Shown here: positions 1,774 through 12,598 of the stretch, one piece after another
Numbering within the stretch: position 1 is the first letter of the stretch
Layout: the number at the start of each line of letters is the position of its first letter
Source of the DNA: Verrucomicrobiaceae bacterium
GTDB lineage: Bacteria > Verrucomicrobiota > Verrucomicrobiia > Verrucomicrobiales > Verrucomicrobiaceae
DNA length: 64,000 nucleotides
Direction: 5' to 3'
Assembly: GCA_027489965.1 (NCBI GenBank)
Contig: JAIXZA010000053.1
Coordinates: 57,976-121,975, forward strand
The notes under the pieces: model-generated
Seen by the model: only the letters and a program-made list of their open reading frames with translations
Database searches by the model: none
What the model was told of the DNA's origin: nothing
Position numbers and translations under genes: made by a program

Positions 1774-4188
1774 ATGCATGATACTCCGCCCTTGATTCAC
1801 ACCATGGCCTACCGCCTAGCACTTGAACCCACGCCGACGAACCCGCTTTTACCGAGCGCGGTAACGGGTTCGCGCGCCTTGGTGCCAATTGCTCCGTCAT
1901 CGTTGGGAATGCCGTCACCTCTTTCACAGGTGGATCATAGCCCATACCTCTCCACGCCTGCGCCACAGTTCAGTGAATCAATCATCAGTATTACCGATCT
2001 ATTTGGTTATCTGAAAAAGCACTGGTTTAAAGGACTTTGTGCGGGCGTTCCAGCCGCAATGCTGATCTTTTATGCTCTTGGTATGGGGGCTAAAGTCTAT
2101 GAGGCGGAGGCTAAATTAAGACTGCGACTGCAAAACAGCAGTGTCGCCACCTTTGGGGAATCTCAAAAAGGTTTCTCAGAACTCAGCGCTCCGCAGTTGA
2201 TCAACAACCATCTCACAGAGATGATGTCACATCGCTTTGCCGATTACTTGTATGATCACTTTGACCCAGTGAAACGTGCAAAGTACGTGGATGATGTCAG
2301 CAAGAGACTTGGCAGGAAAGATCAGCTACTCAGCGCCATCGGGCTGTATAAACCAGGGAAGCCTACTCCTGAACGCGAAGTTTTTGTCAATGCAGTCGCA
2401 GGAGCTGCTCGAGTCGAGCCTCAAAAGGAATCCCATATTCTTCGTCTTTTAGTGCGTGACCTAGATCCTCAAATGGCCGCCGACATCGCCAACAGCATGT
2501 CAGAGCTCTACATGCGTTTTTATGGAGAAAGTGAGTCCAATCTGACGGAAAGTGATCGCACTTACCTCAAACAACAGGCAGAAGTGCTCAGGAAACGTTT
2601 GGAAGACAGCGAGCGTGAACTCACCGCCTACAGTAAAAGTCAAAACCTCTTCCAGCAAGGCGACAACAGAGATGTGGACGGAGAAAGAGTGCGCCAGTTC
2701 AATGTAGCACTGACAGAAGCTCAGCTTAAATTGGCCCGAGCGAAAAACGAATTACAAAGCATTAGGACAACACAACAAGCAGGACGCGACCTCCGCGAAG
2801 TGCGCAGCATTGCAGACAATGCAGATGTGGCTTTTAATCGCAAAGAACTCGAGGCTAAAGTTCTCGATCGTCGTGCCCTTGAGGCGCAATGCGGCCGTCG
2901 CCACCCAAACATGATTGCCCTTGCCAGCGAAATTGAGACCTTAAAAAATGCGTTAGACGCATCCGTTAACTCCGTCGTCACTATGGCTGAGACAGAAGTG
3001 ACCAACCTGGAGCGCCAGATTGCTGACTATGAAAAACAGCTAGGTAACGCCAGAGGCGCAGCGATTGATCAGAGCGGTAAAACCGTGCAGCAGAGACTCT
3101 TGTCCGATCAAGTCAACACAGACAGAGAGAGCTATCAGAAAATTGTCAAAAGTCTGAACCAAGCAGAAATCAGCGGCCAATTCAAAGACGTCGGTGCCCT
3201 TAGCCTTTCTGATGTGGCGACTCCTCCTGAAAAACCAGTCAAGCCAAACAAACCAATTGCAGCTGTCGCCAGTTTGATGATTTTTGGCATCCTTCTGATC
3301 GGACTGCCCGTTGGCTGGGGCTTGTTTGATGATCACGTCATGAAGCTGATCCGCCAAGGTGGCTCACCCTCAATCAATATCCCTTCAGCCAACCAGGTAC
3401 CGCACATTCCAATCGGCCAAGCCGCATCTATGCAGGCACAGCCTACTCCGTCTCAAGCTCTAGCGGTCCCGTCACTATCTAGTATCAGACCGCAGCATCC
3501 GCCTTTAACGATTCCAGGCATGAATCAGGCTCCGGTCTTGGCCAAGCTTCCACTCATTGGTTCAGCCAATCCAGAAGCGATGTTAGGGCAGCTGCTCAAG
3601 CCTGAGCCCATGGGAGCGGCTGGAGCGCTCCATCAAATCACCACTAATTTAGAAATGCAGGCCCTCAAGCGCAGTGGTCTAGGTGGCATCATTCTCATCA
3701 CCAGCGCCGACGCAGGCGAAGGGAAAACGGTCTCCGCTGCTGCCTTAGCCGCAGCCTTCTGTCATCAGGGCCGGAGCGTCTTCATGATGGAATGCAATTC
3801 CGTCTCTCCCACACTGCATCAATGGTTCCCGCAGGCCTACAATCACAGCTCATGGGCTAATGATTTGGAGTCTCTGCGTTATGGCAATACTCACCTCTTT
3901 CTTCTGCCCGCCCACGATTTACCAGCCTACGCGACCAATGAATTGCTAGATGGGTACCGTGCCTGGATCGACCGCGCCCGGCAGCATGTGGACTGGATCA
4001 TTTTAGACGGTGGTCCAGTTCTCAGGAATTTTGCTGATGTCGCCCCTCTAGCTCCTTTGGCCACAGACGTTCTTCTGGTGAATAATCCCAGCATTTCCAG
4101 TCCCGCCAAACTTCGTGCCGCGCTAAATCTGCTCCAGCCCATGATGTCCAGCAGCGCATTCCGAGGCTTGATCGTTCATGGAGGCTGA
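1774..4188 (+). CDS. GumC/Wzc-like polysaccharide co-polymerase with degenerate tyrosine-kinase domain
   Basis: Two TM segments flank a long coiled-coil periplasmic region (GRRHPNMIAL; DVATPPEKPVKPNK). Walker A TSADAGEGKT is present. No C-terminal Tyr cluster. Confidence 0.85.
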   Translation: MHDTPPLIHTMAYRLALEPTPTNPLLPSAVTGSRALVPIAPSSLGMPSPLSQVDHSPYLSTPAPQFSESIISITDLFGYLKKHWFKGLCAGVPAAMLIFYALGMGAKVYEAEAKLRLRLQNSSVATFGESQKGFSELSAPQLINNHLTEMMSHRFADYLYDHFDPVKRAKYVDDVSKRLGRKDQLLSAIGLYKPGKPTPEREVFVNAVAGAARVEPQKESHILRLLVRDLDPQMAADIANSMSELYMRFYGESESNLTESDRTYLKQQAEVLRKRLEDSERELTAYSKSQNLFQQGDNRDVDGERVRQFNVALTEAQLKLARAKNELQSIRTTQQAGRDLREVRSIADNADVAFNRKELEAKVLDRRALEAQCGRRHPNMIALASEIETLKNALDASVNSVVTMAETEVTNLERQIADYEKQLGNARGAAIDQSGKTVQQRLLSDQVNTDRESYQKIVKSLNQAEISGQFKDVGALSLSDVATPPEKPVKPNKPIAAVASLMIFGILLIGLPVGWGLFDDHVMKLIRQGGSPSINIPSANQVPHIPIGQAASMQAQPTPSQALAVPSLSSIRPQHPPLTIPGMNQAPVLAKLPLIGSANPEAMLGQLLKPEPMGAAGALHQITTNLEMQALKRSGLGGIILITSADAGEGKTVSAAALAAAFCHQGRSVFMMECNSVSPTLHQWFPQAYNHSSWANDLESLRYGNTHLFLLPAHDLPAYATNELLDGYRAWIDRARQHVDWIILDGGPVLRNFADVAPLAPLATDVLLVNNPSISSPAKLRAALNLLQPMMSSSAFRGLIVHGG

Positions 4189-4948
4189 TCCACTGCATGG
4201 CATGACCTCCGAATGCCCAGCAGATTTTCTTTCCAGCCTCGAAACGATGGCTGCGCCCAACGTAGACCAAAGAATCGAGCTGCCGAAGGTGATACTCAAA
4301 GAATTGCGTCCGCTAGGGCATGAAATTTCGCTTTGGGCCAATGAAGCCCAGCAATTGGCACTACGTGTCAGCAAAGTTCGCTATCCCGCCGATTTAAAGG
4401 CCTTCCTAAAGCTCTGGCTACCCGCATTGCCTATCAGTCCGCCCACAGAGGCGTTTCACCTCCTGCTCAGCCAGTCTGACAAGGGCTACCAGATCTCTGG
4501 CAGCTCATTGCCATGGATGCATGATCCGACCTGGGCTGCACTGCTCCAAATTCCCGCTCTGCGATCTAGCTGGATCAGTAGCCTACGCGCCAGTCACTTT
4601 GATCACCTCTTGCGCCTTCTGCCTGCTTCATGGCTCATGGACCCCGCGCCATTGCCACCTGGCTGCGTGATTCCTGGAATAGAAATCGCCACATGGGCAG
4701 ATCTAGTCACACTCCGCGATCATGGGCGCAGTTTTAAAATTCATTCTGCGCAATCAGCTTCGACTCTTTCCGATCTTCAATCGCTCTCCGAATGGCAAAC
4801 CATACTGGGAAACCCAGCCCTGGCAGTTTTAGTCGAACAGCCCCACTCAAAAGCATGGATCTTAGCCCGTTATGAGCAGGATGCAGGTAAAATTCAGCTA
4901 GCAGGCGCTTGGCTCGCAGAAAACGGCCAGCTTTTCGCAGCCCAATAA
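4178..4948 (+). CDS. Hypothetical protein (possibly a degenerate ATP-grasp-like verrucomicrobial family member)
   Basis: 256-aa ORF overlapping the Wzc-like stop. The segment LLPASWLMDPAPLPPGCVIPG..W resembles a conserved verrucomicrobial protein from memory only. Confidence 0.55.
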   Translation: MEADPLHGMTSECPADFLSSLETMAAPNVDQRIELPKVILKELRPLGHEISLWANEAQQLALRVSKVRYPADLKAFLKLWLPALPISPPTEAFHLLLSQSDKGYQISGSSLPWMHDPTWAALLQIPALRSSWISSLRASHFDHLLRLLPASWLMDPAPLPPGCVIPGIEIATWADLVTLRDHGRSFKIHSAQSASTLSDLQSLSEWQTILGNPALAVLVEQPHSKAWILARYEQDAGKIQLAGAWLAENGQLFAAQ

Positions 4949-5036: not shown

Positions 5037-6512
5037 ATGAAAACACCCCTTTCTAATCTCCGTCTTAATTCACGTCGGCTGACCCACGGCGGAGCAGCAC
5101 CCATTATCATCATTGTGCTAGCGCTCATCATCAGCGCGCTTGTTTTCTTCTTCTACACCCGCCCAAAGCTCGAAAAGAAAGATGAGCTGACCAGTGCCGA
5201 ACTTATCCAGACGCCAGAAGTCAGCTCAGCTAAGCCAGCAGCAATGACACCCCCACCGGTTACACCCGCAGTGCCACCGGTTACTCCTCCTCCCACCCCA
5301 GCTCCCAGCTTTGGCTTTGCCCGTCCGCTAGATCTGGCCAAAGAAATGGCACGGAGTTTAGCAACAGGTGATTTCTCCCGCGTCGGCAGCATGGCTGCTG
5401 CGGCTGATCCAGCACAGGCGACCTCCGCAGCCGCCATGCTTGAGAAACTCATGAAAACCATGGGTGCCAAAGTCGGCCCAGAAGATCAGGTGGAACTCCT
5501 CGGCATGGTGGAAAACAAAACACGGGTCGCCATTCCATTCACTCTGCCAGGACAACCCGAGACATTGAGACTGCAAATGGATCTAGAGCGTGACGAACGC
5601 ATGGGCTGGAAGATCACTCGTCTGGAATTGCCGAAGGAGGTAGCCTCCATCCTTCCCGCCGCTGCACCACCAGCCATGGCCGCCAATTCAACGCAGGGCG
5701 GGCCTGCTGTCCCTCCTGCAGATACTGCAATGACGGTAAAGCCAAAGTCTTTGTTTGCCGTTGCGGAGGGGGTCGATGCTCTCACTTTTGGCAGCGACTT
5801 CGTCCGGGCTCTGCTCACGCATGATTTCGCCACAGCTCGGAAAATGGTGGATGAGAAAAAAGTGCCTGCCGAGCGCCTCGCCGGTCTTTGCATCGTCTTT
5901 GAGGAAGGCCAGTATGAGTTTAAACCCACCAAGCCTCTCATCATCACCGTCGCCAATCCAGAAGTCTCCTGGGTCGTCGCCCAAGTGCAATCTCAGGTGC
6001 TTCAACAGACGACTGAATTTGGGCTGGAACTTCAGCGGCCTAACGTGGATCAGCCTTGGCGTGTCGTCGGACTGAATCTCTCAGAAATTTTAGGCTCCTT
6101 TGCAGCCTCTGCCTCGAAAATGGGTGTTCCCTACACTCCCATCATCACGAACCCAACTGGCGGCGAGTCCCTAGCGCTCTATTTTGAATACGATCAGGCA
6201 ACGCTGCATCCTCGCGCTCAAAAGCAGTTGGACATCGTTGCTGGGCTCTTAAAATCAGATCCCAACAAAAAGCTCAAAATCGCTGGTCACACGGACGATA
6301 AAGGCACCGATGACTACAATCTAAATCTGTCTCGTGCGCGTGCAGAAACCGTCAAGGTCCAGTTAGTGGCACTCGGTGTCCCTGAAGCTCAAGTGATCAC
6401 CACTGCCTTGGGTAAAGCTCAGCCTCTGAGCCCCAACCAAAAGGCCGATGGCACTGACGATCCGAGTGGTCGATCTAAAAATCGCCGCGCAGAGATCTTC
6501 CTAGATTTCTAA
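5037..6512 (+). CDS. OmpA-family peptidoglycan-binding membrane-anchored protein
   Basis: N-terminal TM helix and Pro-rich linker. C-terminal OmpA_C motifs: LYFEYDQATL, IAGHTDDKG, NLNLSRARAETV, NRRAEI. Confidence 0.9.
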   Translation: MKTPLSNLRLNSRRLTHGGAAPIIIIVLALIISALVFFFYTRPKLEKKDELTSAELIQTPEVSSAKPAAMTPPPVTPAVPPVTPPPTPAPSFGFARPLDLAKEMARSLATGDFSRVGSMAAAADPAQATSAAAMLEKLMKTMGAKVGPEDQVELLGMVENKTRVAIPFTLPGQPETLRLQMDLERDERMGWKITRLELPKEVASILPAAAPPAMAANSTQGGPAVPPADTAMTVKPKSLFAVAEGVDALTFGSDFVRALLTHDFATARKMVDEKKVPAERLAGLCIVFEEGQYEFKPTKPLIITVANPEVSWVVAQVQSQVLQQTTEFGLELQRPNVDQPWRVVGLNLSEILGSFAASASKMGVPYTPIITNPTGGESLALYFEYDQATLHPRAQKQLDIVAGLLKSDPNKKLKIAGHTDDKGTDDYNLNLSRARAETVKVQLVALGVPEAQVITTALGKAQPLSPNQKADGTDDPSGRSKNRRAEIFLDF

Positions 6513-6537: not shown

Positions 6538-7098
6538 TTACTGCGCACTATCCTTCGCCTGCTGCTGACTCGCGGCATCCAGCTTGCTCATCGCATAGGG
6601 AACCTCTTGTGCGTTGGCGGGCATGCGAAGGATGACGTTTTCACCTTCCAGGCGCACAAAACCAGCCTTGATCTTTTTGCCCTCAAAATTGGTCCAAGTC
6701 ATAATCGGCGGCAGATCTTTTTTGGCCAAGCCCGCTGTCGGAGTCATTTTGGGAGCATCCTTGGTTAAGCCAGCCCCCTCAGTGATCCACTCGCGCATTG
6801 TTTCGATTTCACGACTGGAAAGATTGTCCTTCGGCGGCATATGCGCCTCATGCTCTGCGTCTGCCACGACGATAAAGAGATGACTTTCAGCAGGATTCCC
6901 AGGCACGATGGCCCCTTTTGGATTGATGTCTTTTTGAAACGTCTCTAGATCATCAAAGACATAACCAGCCTTCTTTTTTCCCGCCTTTTCACTGTGACAT
7001 TCATAGCAATGCTTTTCCAAAATAGGTTGGATGTCTTTTTTGAAATCAGCCGCTAAAGTGCTGCTGGTAATGATAAGAAGAGCTGTGAAAACTTTCAT
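6538..7098 (-). CDS. Secreted planctomycete-type cytochrome c (PSCyt1) with C-terminal SHD1-like domain
   Basis: Signal peptide, DFKKDIQPILEKHCYECH heme motif, IVPGNPAES, HMPP, WITEGA. C-terminal WTNFEGKKIKAGFVRLEGENVIL..LDAASQQ is SHD1-like. ATG at 7098 preferred over TTG at 7110. Confidence 0.85.
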   Translation of the reverse strand: MKVFTALLIITSSTLAADFKKDIQPILEKHCYECHSEKAGKKKAGYVFDDLETFQKDINPKGAIVPGNPAESHLFIVVADAEHEAHMPPKDNLSSREIETMREWITEGAGLTKDAPKMTPTAGLAKKDLPPIMTWTNFEGKKIKAGFVRLEGENVILRMPANAQEVPYAMSKLDAASQQQAKDSAQ

Positions 7099-7197
7099 GA
7101 GGAGTGTCAATCAAACGTGCAAGTCACCATGAGCTTAGATTTTGTCTTTTTCACATCCTTCTTTGCGCCCGGTCCAGCATAGCCCAATATCCCTACC

Positions 7198-8088
7198 GTG
7201 CTAGACGCCATCGACAGCTTCATCCTACACCTCGCTACCGAACGAGGCCTGTCCACCAATTACCAGATCCTGGTCCGTGGTGTTTTAGAGGCTTTTGCCT
7301 CTTGGAGTAAAGAAGATCAAAAGCTCGAAGACGTGGCCGCCGTGACAACTCAAACGCTCTCAGACTACCTCGCCCGCCGGAAGCGTGACGGCATTGCAGC
7401 CTCCAGCGCTCGCATTGAGCTGGTGGCCCTGAAGATTTTCTTCCGCTGGTTAGCCGCCCGCGGCAAGCGTGTCGGTGATCCTGCTGAACCCATCCTCCCT
7501 CCGCGCCAAGAAAAGCATCTGCCTGATACGCTGAACGAGCAGGATGCACGGACGCTTGTTGAGTCGATCACTGGAAACAGCGCCCTAGATCGCCGTGACA
7601 GAGCCATTTTAGAGCTCTTTTATGCTAGCGGCCTGCGCCTTTCTGAACTCGTTAATGCGCGATTAGAAAATCTCAGTCTCGAAGAAGGCTGGATCAGAGT
7701 AACAGGGAAAGGGAATAAAACAAGACTTTCACCCGTCGGCGGTGCAGCTCGCGACGCCCTGCAAGCTTATCTGGGTCATGGCCGGCCTGAATTGGTCGGC
7801 AAAAAGACTCAAAGTCACATCTTTCTCTCCATCCGCGGCACCGCGCTGACTCGGATGCGCGTTTATCAAATCGTTCAGGAGCGCGCCAAAACAGCCGGAC
7901 TTGAGAATCGCGTGCACCCACATCTACTCAGGCACAGCTTTGCGACCCATCTGCTGAACAATGGCGCTGATCTGCGTGTGATCCAAGAAATGCTAGGGCA
8001 CGCCGACATCTCGACGACCCAAATTTACACGCATGTGGATCAGAAGCGGCTGAAACAGGTCCATCGCCAGTTTCATCCGCGCGCTTAG
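7198..8088 (+). CDS. xerD: Site-specific tyrosine recombinase XerD
   Basis: Catalytic motifs ASGLRLSEL, VTGKGNKTR, HLLRHSFATHLL, LGHADISTTQIYTH. 296 aa ending HPRA. Housekeeping context. XerC cannot be fully excluded. Confidence 0.9.
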   Translation: MLDAIDSFILHLATERGLSTNYQILVRGVLEAFASWSKEDQKLEDVAAVTTQTLSDYLARRKRDGIAASSARIELVALKIFFRWLAARGKRVGDPAEPILPPRQEKHLPDTLNEQDARTLVESITGNSALDRRDRAILELFYASGLRLSELVNARLENLSLEEGWIRVTGKGNKTRLSPVGGAARDALQAYLGHGRPELVGKKTQSHIFLSIRGTALTRMRVYQIVQERAKTAGLENRVHPHLLRHSFATHLLNNGADLRVIQEMLGHADISTTQIYTHVDQKRLKQVHRQFHPRA

Positions 8089-8108
8089 TGTAATTTTTTT
8101 CAAATGAT

Positions 8109-8122
8109 TGAACAACTCATCA
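8109..8122 (+). promoter_or_regulatory. Imperfect palindrome resembling an ArsR/SmtB operator core
   Basis: TGAACAACTCATCA versus the SmtB-type core TGAACAnnTnTTCA, 25 bp upstream of the Cys/His-containing 129-aa gene. It overlaps TTCAA-atga-TTGAA and lies next to TCAAC-tgac-GTTGA. Confidence 0.25.
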
Positions 8123-8146
8123 ACTGACGTTGACTGAGAGTTCGTT

Positions 8147-8536
8147 ATGTTTGCTCGACTTACCCACTTCCTCATGGTTCTGCTTATGGCAGTCCCCATG
8201 TGCTTGTGTGGCGTAGCTCAGGCAAAAGAGGAAACAGGGTCATGCATGGCCTGTCACAAGTTCCTGCTTCCTGAGGACAAACCTGCGGATCAGCCGACGC
8301 ATCAATCTGACATGCCCTGCTGCCAGGGCACGCTCGAACGAAATCTTTCCCCTGACACGACTGCCACACCCCGACTGGTCTTGGTCGATTTACAGCCATG
8401 GCTGTGGCAGCGTGCCGAGGAGAGCTTCTTACCTGAAACAGGACACGAACTGAGCCTAAGCCAGTTCATTAAAGATCACGGACCGCCGCGTTTGCAGGTC
8501 CCCCTATATTACCTTCACAGCGCTCTGCTCATTTGA
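8147..8536 (+). CDS. Putative metal-sensing leader/arrest protein (DUF2946/CruR-like)
   Basis: N-terminal hydrophobic segment with CLC, then CMACH and CC. HGPP at codons 111-114 followed by a PLYYLHSALLI tail. Sits directly upstream of a Cys-rich peptide gene. Confidence 0.6.
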   Translation: MFARLTHFLMVLLMAVPMCLCGVAQAKEETGSCMACHKFLLPEDKPADQPTHQSDMPCCQGTLERNLSPDTTATPRLVLVDLQPWLWQRAEESFLPETGHELSLSQFIKDHGPPRLQVPLYYLHSALLI

Positions 8537-8706
8537 GTCGGACAGGCGAACTGCCTTGGCTATCAGCGACGAAATTGTCCGTGCGAAAGAGCACCTCAGT
8601 CCGCCGTTCTGGCGCGTCTCTCCCCAGACCGATGGGCAGGCCAATCCCTTCATGTTAAATGGCTTAAAGTAACGAAACTCAATTCAAATTCAAAACATCA
8701 AAGACT

Positions 8707-8871
8707 ATGAAAACGATCCTATCTATCCTCACTCTTGCTGCCCTTTCCACCTCAGCTTTCTCAGGTGAAGCCTGTAGCAAGTGCTGCTCTGACAAAGGCA
8801 AATCCTGCGCAGAGTGCTGCAAAGATGCTGGCAAGACCTGCGGCAAAGATTGCTGCAAAGAGAAGAAGTAA
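8707..8871 (+). CDS. Secreted 54-aa cysteine-rich metallothionein-like peptide (not in supplied ORF track)
   Basis: Manual translation: MKTILSILTLAALSTSAFSGEACSKCCSDKGKSCAECCKDAGKTCGKDCCKEKK*. Clear signal peptide, 9 Cys, A-rich leader typical of this genome's starts, and a terminator immediately downstream. Confidence 0.85.
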   Translation: MKTILSILTLAALSTSAFSGEACSKCCSDKGKSCAECCKDAGKTCGKDCCKEKK

Positions 8872-8907
8872 GCAGCCCATCGAGCGCCTCAGCGCTTGAA
8901 AACAATT

Positions 8908-8947
8908 ACCGCCGTCATCTGAATCTCAGGTGGCGGCGGTTTTGTTT
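8908..8947. terminator. Rho-independent terminator between the Cys-rich peptide gene and convergent nadA
   Basis: ACCGCCGTCATCTGA-atc-TCAGGTGGCGGCGGT stem followed by TTTGTTT. Confidence 0.85.
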
Positions 8948-8963
8948 AGTATCTATGCAGAAT

Positions 8964-9905
8964 CTACCGACTTAGCTCCAGCATTCTTAAAATCGGCTTT
9001 TCAGCACGGGCACGCAGATCTTCTGGCATCTCCACCTGCGGCGTCAGATCTCTGAGTGCATCGCGCAGCTTTTGCAGGGTATTCAGCTTCATGTAACGGC
9101 AGTCCGCGCAGGCGCAGTGACCCGTCGGACCTGGGATGAATCGCTTGTTTGGCACCTCCCGCTCCAGTCGATGCAGCATTCCGCTTTCCGTCACGATGAT
9201 GAAGGTGTTTGAGTCGCTGTTTTTGCAATAACCCACCATCTTTTCGGTCGAACAAACTTCATCTGCCAACATCCGCACCGCATAAGTGCACTCTGGATGA
9301 GCCACGACTTTTGCATCAGGATACTCGTCTTTAATCGCCTGAATGCTATCACGGGTGAACTCCACATGGACATAGCAAGAGCCCTTCCAAAGATCCATCT
9401 TGCGGCCTGTCTGCTCCATCACCCATGAACCCAGATTCTGATCCGGCACAAAAAGGATCGGACGATCTTTCGGGGCGGCTTCCACGATTTTGACCGCATT
9501 GCCACTCGTGCAGATGCAGTCGCTTAGCGCCTTCACATGACCGCTGCAATTGATGTAAGCGATCACATAATAATTCTTCTCTGCATTCGCCTTCAGGAAA
9601 GACTCCAGCTGCGGCCCAGGGCAGCTTTGCTCCAAGGAACAACCCGCGTCCCGATCTGGCAAAATCACCGTCTTCGTCGGATTGACGATTTTTGCTGTTT
9701 CCGCCATGAAATGCACACCGCAAAAAGCAATCACATCCGCATTCGTCTCTTTGGCTTTGTAAGCCAGCCCCAGAGAATCCCCCACAAAGTCAGCGATTTC
9801 CTGAATGTCCCGAGTTTGGTAGTTGTGCGCGAGAATGAGAGCATTGCGCTCCTGTTTCAGGCGGCGGATATCTTCAATAAGGCTGGGTGTGGCGGTTGCG
9901 ACCAT
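8964..9905 (-). CDS. nadA: Quinolinate synthase A
   Basis: ILAHNYQ, DFVGDSL, FCGVHFMAETAK, AGCSL, YINCS, CYVH, AHPEC, and the C-terminal C..MKLNTL motif. Confidence 0.97.
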   Translation of the reverse strand: MVATATPSLIEDIRRLKQERNALILAHNYQTRDIQEIADFVGDSLGLAYKAKETNADVIAFCGVHFMAETAKIVNPTKTVILPDRDAGCSLEQSCPGPQLESFLKANAEKNYYVIAYINCSGHVKALSDCICTSGNAVKIVEAAPKDRPILFVPDQNLGSWVMEQTGRKMDLWKGSCYVHVEFTRDSIQAIKDEYPDAKVVAHPECTYAVRMLADEVCSTEKMVGYCKNSDSNTFIIVTESGMLHRLEREVPNKRFIPGPTGHCACADCRYMKLNTLQKLRDALRDLTPQVEMPEDLRARAEKPILRMLELSR

Positions 9906-10027: not shown

Positions 10028-12598
10028 ATGAAAACAAGCCACTACCTCCAGCTCGCGAGCGCCTTAGCCCTAGGCCTATCCGCTTGTAAACCAGCTGCCA
10101 ATACTGCCGCTGATGATGAAGCACGTCGGCAGATGGAGGCAACTCGTGCTGCATATGAGAAGCAGGCTGCCGACATGCAAAGCCGTAGTGAAGCCCTGCA
10201 AAAGCAGCTCGCCGACTTGGAGCTCAGCATCAAGGACAAGGAAAATGCGGACCTCAGGGCAAAGCTGGATGCGATTGCTGCTGAAAACCAAAAACTCATG
10301 ACCGATGCAGCCTCGGCACGCAAAAAAAGTGAAGACCTGCGCGATCAACTGGCCAACAACCGCTACACGCCACCCGCCGTCAGCCAGCCCTATCAGCCAC
10401 CTTACGTGCCGCCACAGATCTCGCCCTCTGTCCCCTCCCGTCCGTGGGTGGACCCGTCTGCCGACTACTCCATGTTTTATGATTCCCTCAATCCTCATGG
10501 GCGCTGGCTGAACGTGGATGGCTACGGCTACGCCTTCAGCCCCAGAATTGGTTCCCGTTCTTCATGGCGGCCTTACGTCGATGGACGCTGGGTCTCTACC
10601 GCTCAGGGTTGGGCTTGGGATTCCAACGAACCCTTTGGCTGGGCCTGCTATCACTACGGCCGCTGGACCCGCCTTGCCCGTCACGGATGGGTTTGGATTC
10701 CCGGTCGTCAATGGGCGCCCTCATGGGTTTCTTGGCGCTACGGTAGTGATTCCGTCGGCTGGGCTCCCCTGCCCCCTAGCGTCGGTTATGGCAGCATCGG
10801 CCACGATTGTGATGCCCGTTACGGCATTGCCCCCACCAGCTATACCTTCATCCGTGCGACTAATTTTGGACGTTCTAGCTACGTCAATGTAAGCCTCTCC
10901 ATCACCAACATCACCCAGATTTTCCATCAAACGATCAACGTCACCAACATCGTTCAAGTTCGCCAACAGCAGAATAATCTCTTCATCCAGCGTGGTGGCC
11001 CTGCCTTGGACTGGGTCGAAAAACGCTGCGGTGAACGCATCGAGCGGGCACCGATTCAAGTCGTCCACACCTTAGAGCGGCCAGGAGAACGCCGCCCCGG
11101 CCACAGCGATCATGGTTTCATCGCAGCCCCGTTGCCATCAGGACGCGCCAATCGCCCGACTGAACTCCCTCGCAATGCAGAACGTGTCATAGCACCGACC
11201 GTTGTCGATGCCTGGACTGAAGTGCCAGCCGATCAACGCGACGACCTACGTAAAGCCATCACTGAACAAGCCACCGAAGCTCAACCAAAGCCCGTTCTCG
11301 CCGTCACCGACCCGATCATTGTGGAACCAGTGCGTGAATCACCCGCACAGCCAACCATCCCAGCACCAACTGTGGCCGAATTGCCAGGTCGCGGCCCAGG
11401 CCGTAATCGCGGCAAAGGAGACGCCCCAGCCATGCCACAGTTAGAGATTGCTCAAGACGCGGCCAACAAAGCTGACCTAGCCCGCCGAGATGCAGAGCGC
11501 CAGATGCAAGAAGCTCAAGCAGAGCGCGAAAAGCAGCTAGCTGAACAAAAAGCTGCTGAAAGTGCCATGGTAGCCCAACAAGAAAATCTTGCCAAAAAGC
11601 AGGCCGAAGCCATCGCCATGCAGGAGCAGCTAGCCGAGCAAGCTAAGAAAGACGCTGCCATGCGTGAAAAGCAGGCCAGTGAGATGAGCGACAAAGAAGC
11701 CGCTGCACTCAAAGAAAAACAAGCCTCCGACATGGCGGCTCAACAGGAAGAGCTCGCCAAAAAGCAGGCTGAAGCTGTAGCCATGCAGCAGCAGATCGCC
11801 GAGCAGGAAAAAAAAGCCCTGGCCATGCGTGAAGAACAAGCCGCCATCATGAAGCAGCAAGAGGCCGAGGCAGAAAAGGCCAAGGAACTTGCAATGATGG
11901 CAGCCCAGCAAGAAGCCGAAGCCCGCAAACAAGCTGAAGCAGCTTCCATGGCACAGCAAGAAGCCGCCATGCAGGCCGATGCTCTGAAACAACAACAAAT
12001 GCAAACGGCGCAACAGGAAGCAGAACAACGTAAACTCGCCGAGATGGAAGCCGGCAAAGCCCGCGAAAATGCCATGGCAGCCCAACAAGCCGCTCAGGAA
12101 GAACAAGCACGCCGCCAAGCCGAAGCTGCAGCCATGGAAGCTCAACGCGAAGCCAACATGCAGGCCCAACAGGAAGCCGCCGAACGCCAGCGCCTAGCCG
12201 CCATGGAAGCTCAACGCGAAGCCGCGATGCAGGCGCAACAAGAAGCCGCCGAACGTCAGCGCCAAGCCGCCATGGAAGCTCAGCGTGAAGCTGCCATGCA
12301 AGCCCAACAAGAAGCAGCCGAACGCCAGCGCCTAGCCGCCATGGAAGCTCAACGTGAGGCCGCTATGCAGGCCCAACAGGAAGCCGCCGAACGTCAGCGC
12401 CAAGCCGCCATGGAAGCTCAACGTGAAGCTGCGATGCGTGCACAGCAGGAAGCTCAAGAAGCAATGCGCCAACAGCAACAAGAAGCTGCCCGTCGTGCCC
12501 AAGAAGAAGCCATGCGAGCCCAGCAAGAAGCTGCCCAGCGCGCTGCCGCCGAAGAAGCGGCACGACGCGCTGCCCAGCAGCCACCGCCAGGACAATAA
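10028..12598 (+). CDS. Lipoprotein with DUF6600-type Trp/Tyr-rich domain and long Ala/Gln/Glu helical tail
   Basis: Lipobox LSAC, N-terminal coiled coil, FYDSLNPHGRW..WRPYVDGRW..EPFGWACYHYGRW..WAPSWVSWR, and a C-terminal low-complexity helical repeat region. Confidence 0.85.
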   Translation: MKTSHYLQLASALALGLSACKPAANTAADDEARRQMEATRAAYEKQAADMQSRSEALQKQLADLELSIKDKENADLRAKLDAIAAENQKLMTDAASARKKSEDLRDQLANNRYTPPAVSQPYQPPYVPPQISPSVPSRPWVDPSADYSMFYDSLNPHGRWLNVDGYGYAFSPRIGSRSSWRPYVDGRWVSTAQGWAWDSNEPFGWACYHYGRWTRLARHGWVWIPGRQWAPSWVSWRYGSDSVGWAPLPPSVGYGSIGHDCDARYGIAPTSYTFIRATNFGRSSYVNVSLSITNITQIFHQTINVTNIVQVRQQQNNLFIQRGGPALDWVEKRCGERIERAPIQVVHTLERPGERRPGHSDHGFIAAPLPSGRANRPTELPRNAERVIAPTVVDAWTEVPADQRDDLRKAITEQATEAQPKPVLAVTDPIIVEPVRESPAQPTIPAPTVAELPGRGPGRNRGKGDAPAMPQLEIAQDAANKADLARRDAERQMQEAQAEREKQLAEQKAAESAMVAQQENLAKKQAEAIAMQEQLAEQAKKDAAMREKQASEMSDKEAAALKEKQASDMAAQQEELAKKQAEAVAMQQQIAEQEKKALAMREEQAAIMKQQEAEAEKAKELAMMAAQQEAEARKQAEAASMAQQEAAMQADALKQQQMQTAQQEAEQRKLAEMEAGKARENAMAAQQAAQEEQARRQAEAAAMEAQREANMQAQQEAAERQRLAAMEAQREAAMQAQQEAAERQRQAAMEAQREAAMQAQQEAAERQRLAAMEAQREAAMQAQQEAAERQRQAAMEAQREAAMRAQQEAQEAMRQQQQEAARRAQEEAMRAQQEAAQRAAAEEAARRAAQQPPPGQ
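12128..12457 (+). repeat. In-frame 69-bp tandem repeat (23 aa; 4 full copies plus a partial fifth)
   Basis: Unit AA(M)EAQREAAMQAQQEAAERQR[L/Q] starts at 12128, 12197, 12266, 12335 and 12404. The last residue alternates L,Q,L,Q. Confidence 0.95.

Follow-up and report, generated by a model that had tools for sequence, protein, structure and literature searches.

A conserved gene pair of Verrucomicrobiaceae joins a candidate CutF/CruR-like leader to a cysteine-rich, predicted exported peptide

Introduction

The closest described counterparts of the locus considered here are short upstream open reading frames (ORFs) whose stalled ribosomes respond to copper. In Bordetella pertussis, CruR (Bp2923, DUF2946) carries CXXC and RAPP motifs 45 residues apart (+/- 1-2), is followed by a 162-nt intergenic region with more C than G, and holds a ribosome at RAPP that blocks Rho-dependent termination until copper relieves the stall (PMC9426467). 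CutF-like proteins are <150 aa long, start with a signal peptide, contain a Cys motif and have PP near the C-terminus; copper prolongs their stalling during co-translational export and the mature protein is degraded (PMC9973294; bioRxiv 10.1101/2025.02.05.636593), and a 2025 model has disulfide formation supply the force that releases the stall (bioRxiv 10.1101/2025.02.05.636593). Among the CutF-like proteins named so far is SilD/CusD of Cupriavidus metallidurans (pMOL30 silDCBA; PMC9973294). SilD, CutF and CruR all act in cis, and none of them is detected in mature form (PMC9973294, PMC9426467). Here we describe two adjacent genes, ORF-A and ORF-B (A and B in the following), in a 64,000-nt stretch of a Verrucomicrobiaceae genome (GenBank assembly GCA_027489965.1, contig JAIXZA010000053.1, positions 57,976 to 121,975 of the forward strand; the whole stretch is called the window), and compare them with these systems.

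Our favoured interpretation, held with somewhat more confidence than doubt, is that A and B form one unit for the homeostasis of copper or a similar thiophilic metal, in which A would represent, in Verrucomicrobiaceae, the cis-acting leaders of the CutF/CruR/SilD class and B would be an exported metal-binding or metal-buffering peptide. An earlier note on this DNA, made from the sequence alone, knew of no description of such a pairing of leader and tiny chelator; the output peptide is indeed new, but the general pairing of a CutF-like leader with periplasmic copper proteins downstream is already on record (PMC9973294, PMC9426467). The principle of a copper-sensing leader ORF controlling periplasmic copper proteins is thus known, and the novelty lies in the sequence family and the phylum, in the geometry of the motifs and in the peptide that forms the output.

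Results and discussion

Two linked and co-transcribed genes

A (8147-8536, + strand, 129 aa) and B (8707-8871, + strand, 54 aa, nine Cys and a signal-like N-terminus) lie between xerD and the convergent nadA, separated by a spacer of exactly 170 nt (8537-8706, + strand) in which C exceeds G. An intrinsic-terminator-like hairpin with a T-run closes the unit between B and nadA (8908-8950, + strand), the hairpin itself (8908-8940) having 15 pairs, 9 of them G-C, before TTTGTTT; the 170-nt spacer, the 54-aa nine-Cys gene and the terminator are all where the earlier note had placed them. Both genes come from the ORF listing and have homologues. For A, a word-indexed search returned 16, and 59 representative clusters were found among 1.84 billion proteins at E <= 1e-3, all 111-174 aa long and matching end to end; for B there were 30. 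Against the two closest loci, 17 of 22 and 12 of 18 substitutions in A fall at third codon positions, as do 11 of 11 and 12 of 13 in B, and both are real genes evolving under protein-level selection. The closest public genome locus (L012, JAIXOU010000105.1) encodes an identical B peptide and differs at ~6% of A and B nucleotides, so the window comes from a related but different population. Gene callers tend to miss B-like small genes or to extend their N-termini, as in a 100-aa call (L001) and in homologue entries of 74-93 aa.

Scanning one genome per species with a profile of B gave 56 loci, all in Verrucomicrobiaceae (Prosthecobacter, Brevifollis, Phragmitibacter and unnamed metagenome-assembled genomes, MAGs), a family living in fresh water and soil. 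Directly upstream of B and on the same strand, an A-family gene stands in about 50 of the 53 loci whose upstream sequence is long enough to tell, and the distance from A stop to B start runs from 117 to 263 nt across the 56; the exceptions are L038, which has B without A, and L060, in which A is truncated. The flanks fall into at least four unrelated contexts (xerD/nadA; acetyltransferase/PSCyt1; 3-keto-disaccharide hydrolase/GYF; GDSL lipase; others), and since they differ around a constant A-B, it is the pair that is conserved and not the neighbourhood. Cultured strains carrying the cassette include Brevifollis gellanilyticus NBRC 108608 (L027) and Prosthecobacter fluviatilis KACC 12649 (L055).

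In a lake metatranscriptome, a single 711-nt contig, 93% identical, spans 8163-8873; it begins 16 nt past the A start codon and includes the spacer and B, with zero depth over xerD and nadA. A 250-nt contig from another metatranscriptome run (98% identity, 4 mismatches) bridges 8527-8776, and the contigs terminate within 8873-8896. These contigs are imperfect evidence, yet they support a bicistronic RNA that carries A, spacer and B, in keeping with the self-contained transcription unit between xerD and nadA proposed before. Synteny and co-transcription, on which that proposal was to stand or fall, are both observed, A preceding B in the great majority of loci and RNA contigs bridging the two.

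Anatomy of the A family

Conservation was read from an alignment of 58 A-family sequences (A3), and motif spacings were counted over 111 unique members; family proteins are 111-165 aa long (mean 130). By eye, the N-terminus is made up of a basic residue, some 17 hydrophobic residues and A-Q-A. The hydrophobic segment carries PMCLC in the window, C-L-C (codons 19-21, 8201-8209, + strand) closing it, and ends P-x-C-W-C-C in the family consensus; P17, C19 and C21 are nearly invariant. The first Cys motif of the predicted exported part, C-M-A-C-H (codons 33-37, 8243-8257, + strand), has an invariant C33 and a nearly invariant C36, and its CxxC becomes CC in distant members. It is followed by C-C (codons 58-59, 8318-8323, + strand) within a conserved (D)CPC(C) motif, the C58 of which is nearly invariant, and R65, P75 and G-P-P are also conserved. 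The CxC, CxxCH, CC and near-C-terminal HGPP reported earlier for this 129-aa gene can be read directly as C19-L-C21, C33-M-A-C36-H37, C58-C59 and H111-G-P-P114, the last (codons 111-114, 8477-8488, + strand) being the candidate elongation-stall motif. Attachment of c-type haem at CxxCH was considered and rejected, the His and the CxxC spacing degenerating to CC in distant members, as was a lipoprotein signal in A or B, no lipobox standing before a Cys.

Of the 111 unique members, 82 (74%) have an xPP at a distance of 14-26 residues from the C-terminus, its variants including HGPP (20), TGPP (11), HSPP (7) and RAPP (6). Exactly 15 residues follow the second Pro in 58 of these 82, and likewise follow P114 in the window, and six further relatives carry PP right before L-Y, inside the last 15 residues. 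The family's best-conserved block is P-L-Y-Y-L-H-S-A-L-L-I-stop (codons 119-129 and stop, 8501-8536, + strand; family consensus P-L-Y-x-R-H-C-A-L-L-x-stop), the mean top-residue frequency being 0.65 over the last nine residues, 0.63 over the hydrophobic core and 0.17-0.20 over residues 91-110. Between C-P-C and the first Pro of PP there are 51-54 residues in 71 of 80 sequences, the linker being the least conserved part of the protein; the distance from CxxC to PP is loose (65-84 residues). The expectation that leader homologues would conserve xGPP and CxxC holds for the Cys pair and, in about three quarters of the members, for an xPP; PP is lacking in about a quarter of the family.

No sequence match to A was found in Pfam (E <= 1), NCBIfam or PDB. 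The AlphaFold2 model of A has a predicted template modelling score (pTM) of 0.23, its sole confident part being an N-terminal helix (residues 2-26), and beyond this helix the protein is predicted to be unfolded.

Comparison with known leader families

A resembles CutF of Rhodobacter capsulatus (cutFOG) in its size below 150 aa, in an N-terminus that, for A, looks Sec-type by eye, and in Cys motifs (in A, predicted to be exported) that stand at a fixed distance from a Pro-Pro near the C-terminus; like CutF it would be the first gene ahead of a copper-defence gene, and A paralogues too precede multicopper oxidase. The two differ in that CutF has CxxxC 45 residues from PPP, whereas A has CxxC and CPC(C), 51-54 residues to xPP and 15 more conserved residues, and in that CutF melts a stem-loop over the cutO ribosome-binding site across a short spacer, whereas the A-B spacer measures 117-263 nt and the B start is predicted to be open; no sequence homology between CutF and A was detected. 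Set against the published definition of CutF-like proteins (PMC9973294), the window's A is within the size limit (129 aa, limit <150), has the Cys motif by way of C33, C36 and C58 and has a fitting neighbour (B 117-263 nt downstream, paralogues ahead of copper genes), and its PP, at 113-114 of 129, misses the defined position by 1-2 residues, as does that of 58 of the 82 relatives with PP. The accessible portion of the supplement text of PMC9973294 yielded no Verrucomicrobia entries.

Like CruR, A is an upstream ORF with Cys motifs, a Pro-Pro motif (literally RAPP in six homologues), nonpolar C-terminal residues and conserved motif spacing, and a long intergenic region with C over G follows both (162 nt after CruR, 170 nt here). 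In CruR, RAPP stands 3 residues from the end and copper relief of the stall switches off an uptake system via Rho, whereas a defence-type output of A-B would need the opposite sign. The Pfam model of DUF2946 (PF11162) gave no match to the window's A at E <= 1; it is the only Pfam family matched by several A members, weakly and in 3 of 58 (best E = 0.1). The DUF2946 spacing of about 45 residues from CXXC to RAPP is not that of A, for which CxxC-PP is 65-84 and CPC(C)-PP 51-54, and RAPP occurs in 6 of 111. The view of A as an arrest-peptide-like leader of the CruR type is supported by the hydrophobic N-terminus, the Cys motifs, the xPP and the fixed Cys-PP distance; A is not a detectable member of DUF2946.

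A further likeness is to SilD of pMOL30, which also fails PF11162, two of its 80 relatives carrying that domain. SilD and A are similar in size, have a conserved Cys closing the N-terminal hydrophobic segment, and continue from PP into P-L-x-x-L-H-C-x-x-x-I-stop in identical register; SilD heads a resistance-nodulation-division (RND) efflux operon, as A paralogues do in L059 and L069. The SilD C-terminus reads ...R-P-P-P-R-P-L-A-I-L-H-C-C-F-R-I-stop and that of the window's A ...G-P-P-R-L-Q-V-P-L-Y-Y-L-H-S-A-L-L-I-stop, so that P-L and H-C of the two families are equally far from the stop in a shared P-L-x-x-x-H-C-x-x-x-[ILT]-stop. The SilD family differs in its LCxxHC, in an (R)APPPP that abuts PL and in being proteobacterial. 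An hhalign comparison of the A profile with a SilD-family profile aligned the last 15 columns only (P = 0.0023, probability 12.7%), and direct homology of A to DUF2946 or SilD was rejected, hmmscan and hhalign being non-significant except for this tail.

TnaC of the E. coli tna operon works through a ribosome that is retained on its stop codon and keeps Rho from acting (PMC9973294), and the spacer is about 220 nt. A resembles TnaC as a leader with conserved residues near its C-terminus (the last 12-24 codons in TnaC) and a long spacer, but TnaC is a cytoplasmic peptide of 24 aa that senses tryptophan within the ribosomal tunnel, whereas A is 129 aa long, Cys-rich and predicted to be exported. 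A does not follow the pattern of arrest peptides of the ApdA/ApdP/SecM type, with R-[AG]-[PG]-P and conserved upstream tunnel residues: HGPP, TGPP and HSPP dominate in the A family, and the 20 residues before its PP are the least conserved. We treat A as working like a CutF/CruR/SilD leader by analogy, homology being unproven.

Promoter-like element, spacer and start region of B

Alignment of 56 unique loci over the 110 nt ahead of A brought out a conserved TTGAAC, in many loci with CGTT about 14-15 nt downstream. [TC]GAAC is present in 40 of the 56, mostly 35-39 nt before the A start codon, compared with 9.4% of random 50-nt windows. At our locus the element reads TTGAAC-N14-CGTTGAC (8108-8134, + strand); TGAAC-N13-16-CGTT occurs a single time in the 64-kb window (8109-8131), the motif preceding just one of its 41 long ORFs, and 8108-8134 is, by sequence criteria, a conserved gene-specific promoter-like element. 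The AAC in the -35 and the CGT in the -10 follow what we take to be the pattern of extracytoplasmic function (ECF) sigma promoters, and we call the element ECF-like on that assumption. The operator-like palindrome noticed earlier (TCAAC-tgac-GTTGA, 8121-8134) does not hold up: its arms are merely 5 bp, the left one is unconserved even in the closest relatives, and the right one is the conserved -10-like CGTTGA, which places the palindrome inside the promoter-like element.

In every one of 56 spacers C exceeds G, and in the window this is seen over 8438-8567 and strongly over 8594-8801. The spacer had also been described as hairpin-rich, but the fold of 8470-8720 is at shuffle level (minimum free energy -60.4 kcal/mol vs -60.2 +/- 4.4 for shuffles, z = -0.04), leaving one small conserved hairpin, GUGC-GAAAGA-GCAC (8581-8594, + strand), 44 nt past the A stop codon. 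Such a hairpin stands 31-54 nt past the A stop in 19 of 56 spacers (2% of shuffles), with a conserved GAAAGN loop, compensatory changes in 4 of 5 pairs and a covariation score of 0.49 vs 0.21, the set having been chosen for bearing the stem, which biases the percentage of paired cells upward. The hairpin could be a pause, processing or stability element. Several other elements were considered for this region and set aside: a riboswitch or known RNA (no Rfam match at E <= 1), an intrinsic attenuator ahead of B (the + strand of the spacer has nothing terminator-like) and a second promoter of the same type ([TC]GAAC in 22 of 56 spacers, about chance). No sigma-70-like promoter was matched in the spacer, though it may hold an internal promoter of another type.

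B is preceded by a G-depleted, A/C-rich leader that has no Shine-Dalgarno (SD) sequence (8665-8706, + strand), and G makes up 7-8% of the 40 nt before its start codon (mean of 56 loci). The same A/C-rich leader is kept in L038 despite the missing A. SD-like motifs occur before only 9 of the 41 long ORFs in the window, and translation initiation in this genome seems to be largely SD-independent; the missing ribosome-binding site of B is to be judged accordingly. The predicted unpaired probability of the B initiation region is 0.74 vs 0.40 for the rest of the spacer, the region being open in 56 of 56 loci, and a hairpin of the CutF/SecM type masking the B ribosome-binding site was judged unlikely on these grounds together with the z of -0.04. 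With a B start predicted to be open and a long, C-rich spacer, coupling is more likely to be CruR-/TnaC-like than CutF-/SecM-like, and the resemblance of the spacer to that of CruR fits better with a model in which the ribosome controls Rho termination or RNA decay.

The promoter-like element and the constitutively open (predicted) B initiation region also bear on a different account, in which A would be a stable exported or membrane-anchored Cys-rich copper handler (a chaperone, thiol-redox partner or metal sensor) that partners B, with the operon controlled by the ECF-sigma promoter. Such a protein would likewise be in line with protein-level selection on A, with conservation at several places along its length and not at the C-terminus alone, and with a PP that about a quarter of members dispense with. 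Yet A has no predicted fold past the N-terminal helix, and its CPC-PP linker keeps length and not sequence, which is ruler-like rather than domain-like. The nonpolar C-terminal tail and the PP mirror SilD, CutF and CruR, which are cis-acting and not detected when mature (PMC9973294, PMC9426467), and an A-type protein always comes first, with a long gap, before very different genes (B, multicopper oxidase, outer-membrane efflux protein, CusB-like). We regard a stable A as unlikely, though it is the alternative to be taken most seriously, and continue to read A as a cis-acting leader.

The ORF-B peptide

A signal-like segment of B, judged by eye, covers about codons 1-19 and would leave a mature 35-residue peptide, GEACSKCCSDKGKSCAECCKDAGKTCGKDCCKEKK. 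It contains 9 Cys (about 26%) and 10 Lys, no aromatic residues and no His, and its Cys are laid out as three C-x2/3-CC units 11 residues apart, a repeat that does not belong to a described family. B has no match in Pfam, NCBIfam or PDB. AlphaFold2 gives two short helices with a mean predicted local distance difference test (pLDDT) of 64, and structure-based annotation of A and B yielded nothing, both models being too weak for fold searches (pTM 0.23; pLDDT 64).

In composition, the mature peptide is what is expected of a metallothionein (small, >20% clustered Cys, few or no aromatics), and in this it is like SmtA/BmtA, MymT and the eukaryotic metallothioneins, but it has no sequence relationship to them and no homology to a metallothionein family in Pfam, NCBIfam or PDB. 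Classical bacterial metallothioneins are cytoplasmic, whereas B is predicted to be exported. B is encoded beside copper genes and, like PcoE/SilE, CusF and Csp1, would act outside the cytoplasm, but these proteins and CopK likewise have no sequence relationship to B, PcoE/SilE and CusF bind metal by Met and His, not Cys, and Csp1 is a 4-helix bundle. Our best guess from its gene contexts is that B is a periplasmic thiolate metal buffer, taking the role that PcoE/SilE, CusF or CopK fill with Met/His. A literature search for exported or periplasmic bacterial metallothioneins, or for the pairing of a leader with such a peptide, found nothing relevant.

A small, Lys- and Cys-rich peptide with a signal-like N-terminus might also bring to mind a secreted cationic antimicrobial peptide or the precursor of a bacteriocin or of a ribosomally synthesised and post-translationally modified peptide (RiPP), with A as immunity or maturation factor, the more so as neither gene matches any family. 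The surroundings speak otherwise: across the 56 loci no radical-SAM or other modification enzyme, protease or ABC exporter is conserved beside the pair, the flanks are unrelated housekeeping genes, the pair is single-copy at conserved core-genome positions across the family, and several lineages link it to copper genes. We consider an antimicrobial role very improbable and keep to B as a metal-buffering peptide.

Copper genes around A paralogues and B

The metal assignment draws on the genes next to B and to A paralogues. In L075, A is followed after 149 nt by a multicopper oxidase, two YHS/TRASH-like lipoproteins and an HMBD P-type ATPase (Cu P-type ATPase). L072 has A, then a B-like peptide (…GDTCSQCCGDNCAACCQGDCASCCGN), a multicopper oxidase and an HMA protein; the peptide (3999-4271) is uncalled, lies in the 478-nt gap between A and the multicopper oxidase, and goes without the Lys-rich spacers (CSQCC-GDN-CAACC-QGD-CASCC). 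L059, a single MAG, continues from B through a YHS-like gene to a second A-family paralogue (628-1026), 134 nt and a CusB-like gene (1161-2582), the adaptor matching HlyD_D23 (6e-57) and HMBD (5e-9) and ending in a TRASH-like extension. An A-like gene precedes an outer-membrane efflux protein (OEP, 5.5e-19) in L069, and on a JGI contig the order is A, OEP, multicopper oxidase. These neighbours are the spectrum reported for CutF-like and DUF2946 genes and link both genes to copper or a comparable soft metal; the metal-related role suggested in the earlier note is thereby supported.

Downstream of B in at least seven loci there is, in addition, an exported or lipoprotein-like protein of ~80 aa with weak YHS/TRASH matches, which is probably a third, optional member of the system. 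Its motif is KPYPLxTCxxSGxxL...CCxxC, and such genes were located in L009 (4238-4483), L050, L052, L059 (369-620), L060, L064, L074 (1005-1253) and L075 (6231-6479 and 6707-6961).

The same contexts weigh on the idea that the leader senses periplasmic thiol-disulfide status and that B is a secreted thiol-rich redox buffer, the mechanism being otherwise as for a metal-sensing leader, with a disulfide pull. The several Cys pairs of A would suit it, as would the nine Cys of B, and the 2025 CutF model already uses disulfide force (bioRxiv 10.1101/2025.02.05.636593). Yet all informative contexts of A paralogues and B are copper or heavy-metal ones (multicopper oxidase, HMA, HMBD-CusB, Cu-ATPase, YHS/TRASH) and none is Dsb or thioredoxin, and we judge thiol sensing to be quite improbable; metal remains the signal that we favour.

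Proposed mechanism and points against it

In the scheme that follows, we infer that there is export and stalling, which metal is involved, in which direction regulation runs and how the coupling works. Transcription would start at the ECF-like promoter (8108-8134) and end at the terminator (8908-8950), and the hydrophobic N-terminus of A would bring the nascent chain to the Sec translocon. A published argument on CutF/CruR-type leaders allots about 30 residues to the ribosomal tunnel and about 17-20 to the passage across SecY. The distance of about 52 residues between CPC(C) and PP fits this geometry and would put CPC(C) at the periplasmic mouth of the translocon with the ribosome at PP; thus, with the ribosome at the conserved G-P-P, or at the stop 15 codons on, the CPC(C) about 52 residues back may be just reaching the periplasmic side. 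Metal binding or disulfides at those Cys could then alter the pulling force on the chain, the pulling force would set the dwell of the ribosome over the last 20 codons of A, and the dwell time would decide whether transcription and translation proceed into B. For the coupling we picture a ribosome that blocks termination (Rho) or RNA decay in the spacer, in the manner of CruR or TnaC. As the best-conserved residues run from PP to the stop, arrest may fall at termination, TnaC-like, PP then lying some 15 residues earlier in the chain, close to the constriction of the tunnel.

A bolder version, which we offer tentatively and think possible without expecting it, is that the A family constitutes an unrecognised Verrucomicrobiaceae clade of CutF/CruR-type nascent-chain metal sensors, invisible to current profiles. 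The decisive arrest would occur over the final ~20 codons, with G-P-P in the constriction of the tunnel and the P-L-Y-x-x-H-C-A-L-L tail at the stop. The main output would be peptides of 35 residues, rich in Cys and Lys and exported by Sec, which would form a new family and be the first metal sponges of the periplasm to rely on thiolates (exported bacterial metallothioneins); in some lineages they are encoded between the leader and a multicopper oxidase.

Several observations weigh against a metal-sensing leader unit. A is without a Pfam or NCBIfam match, and its profile similarity to the SilD family is non-significant and confined to 15 C-terminal columns. PP is missing at the canonical place in about 21-26% of A members, including a P. 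debontii-like Prosthecobacter clade with the same xerD-A-B-nadA order that has HRSSR for HGPPR, so PP is not indispensable; conservation is also lowest immediately ahead of PP, in the stretch that would occupy the exit tunnel if the ribosome stalled there. L038, a Verrucomicrobiaceae MAG, goes from xerD over 227 nt (2774-3000) straight to B, with no A. In the metatranscriptomes, RNA depth is higher over B than over A (roughly 7-26 vs 3-12), which could reflect an internal promoter or start, RNA processing or differential stability instead of leader control, and the promoter implies transcriptional control that alone could suffice. Finally, a nine-Cys periplasmic peptide might simply be disulfide-bonded and not bind metal.

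If the proposal is true, leader-peptide copper sensing, so far worked out in two Proteobacteria only, extends to another phylum, and, the family being unseen by domain databases, such regulators would be commoner and more varied than present counts indicate. The bacterial copper toolkit would gain a new exported peptide, very small and rich in Cys, and with it the chemical question of how nine thiols stay able to bind metal where conditions are oxidising. Natural variants within the family lend themselves to dissecting arrest (HGPP, RAPP and the PP-less HRSSR, and the same leader before peptide, oxidase or pump), and its presence in cultured strains makes the proposal directly testable.

Neighbouring genes

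On the upstream side, xerD (7198-8088, + strand) encodes a tyrosine recombinase that scores 320.7 bits against NF001399, over the cut-off of that model, and 315.1 bits against TIGR02225 (XerD), under its cut-off of 329.6. The convergent nadA (8964-9905, - strand) matches Pfam NadA at 1.3e-114. Immediately upstream of A, several distant loci have a conserved protein of ~165 aa with an N-terminal membrane anchor and no Pfam match (L070 1064-1558, L071 2831-3433, L072 2936-3433, L060 300-797). In two contexts (window 6538-7110, - strand; L009 4552-5124, - strand), A-B is separated by one gene from an exported 190-aa protein whose domain is PSCyt1 (Planctomycete cytochrome c, CxxCH), the two proteins being 35% identical over their full length (E = 4e-27); such proteins are common in the group and the closeness may be a coincidence. 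Farther out in the window, a 491-aa protein (5037-6512, + strand) joins a Pro/Ala-rich N-terminal half to a C-terminal OmpA-family peptidoglycan-binding domain (2e-20), and an 856-aa protein (10028-12598, + strand) has a DUF6600 domain (4e-33) and a long C-terminal half of near-identical Q/A/E/R-rich repeats (…AAMEAQREAAMQAQQEAAERQR…).

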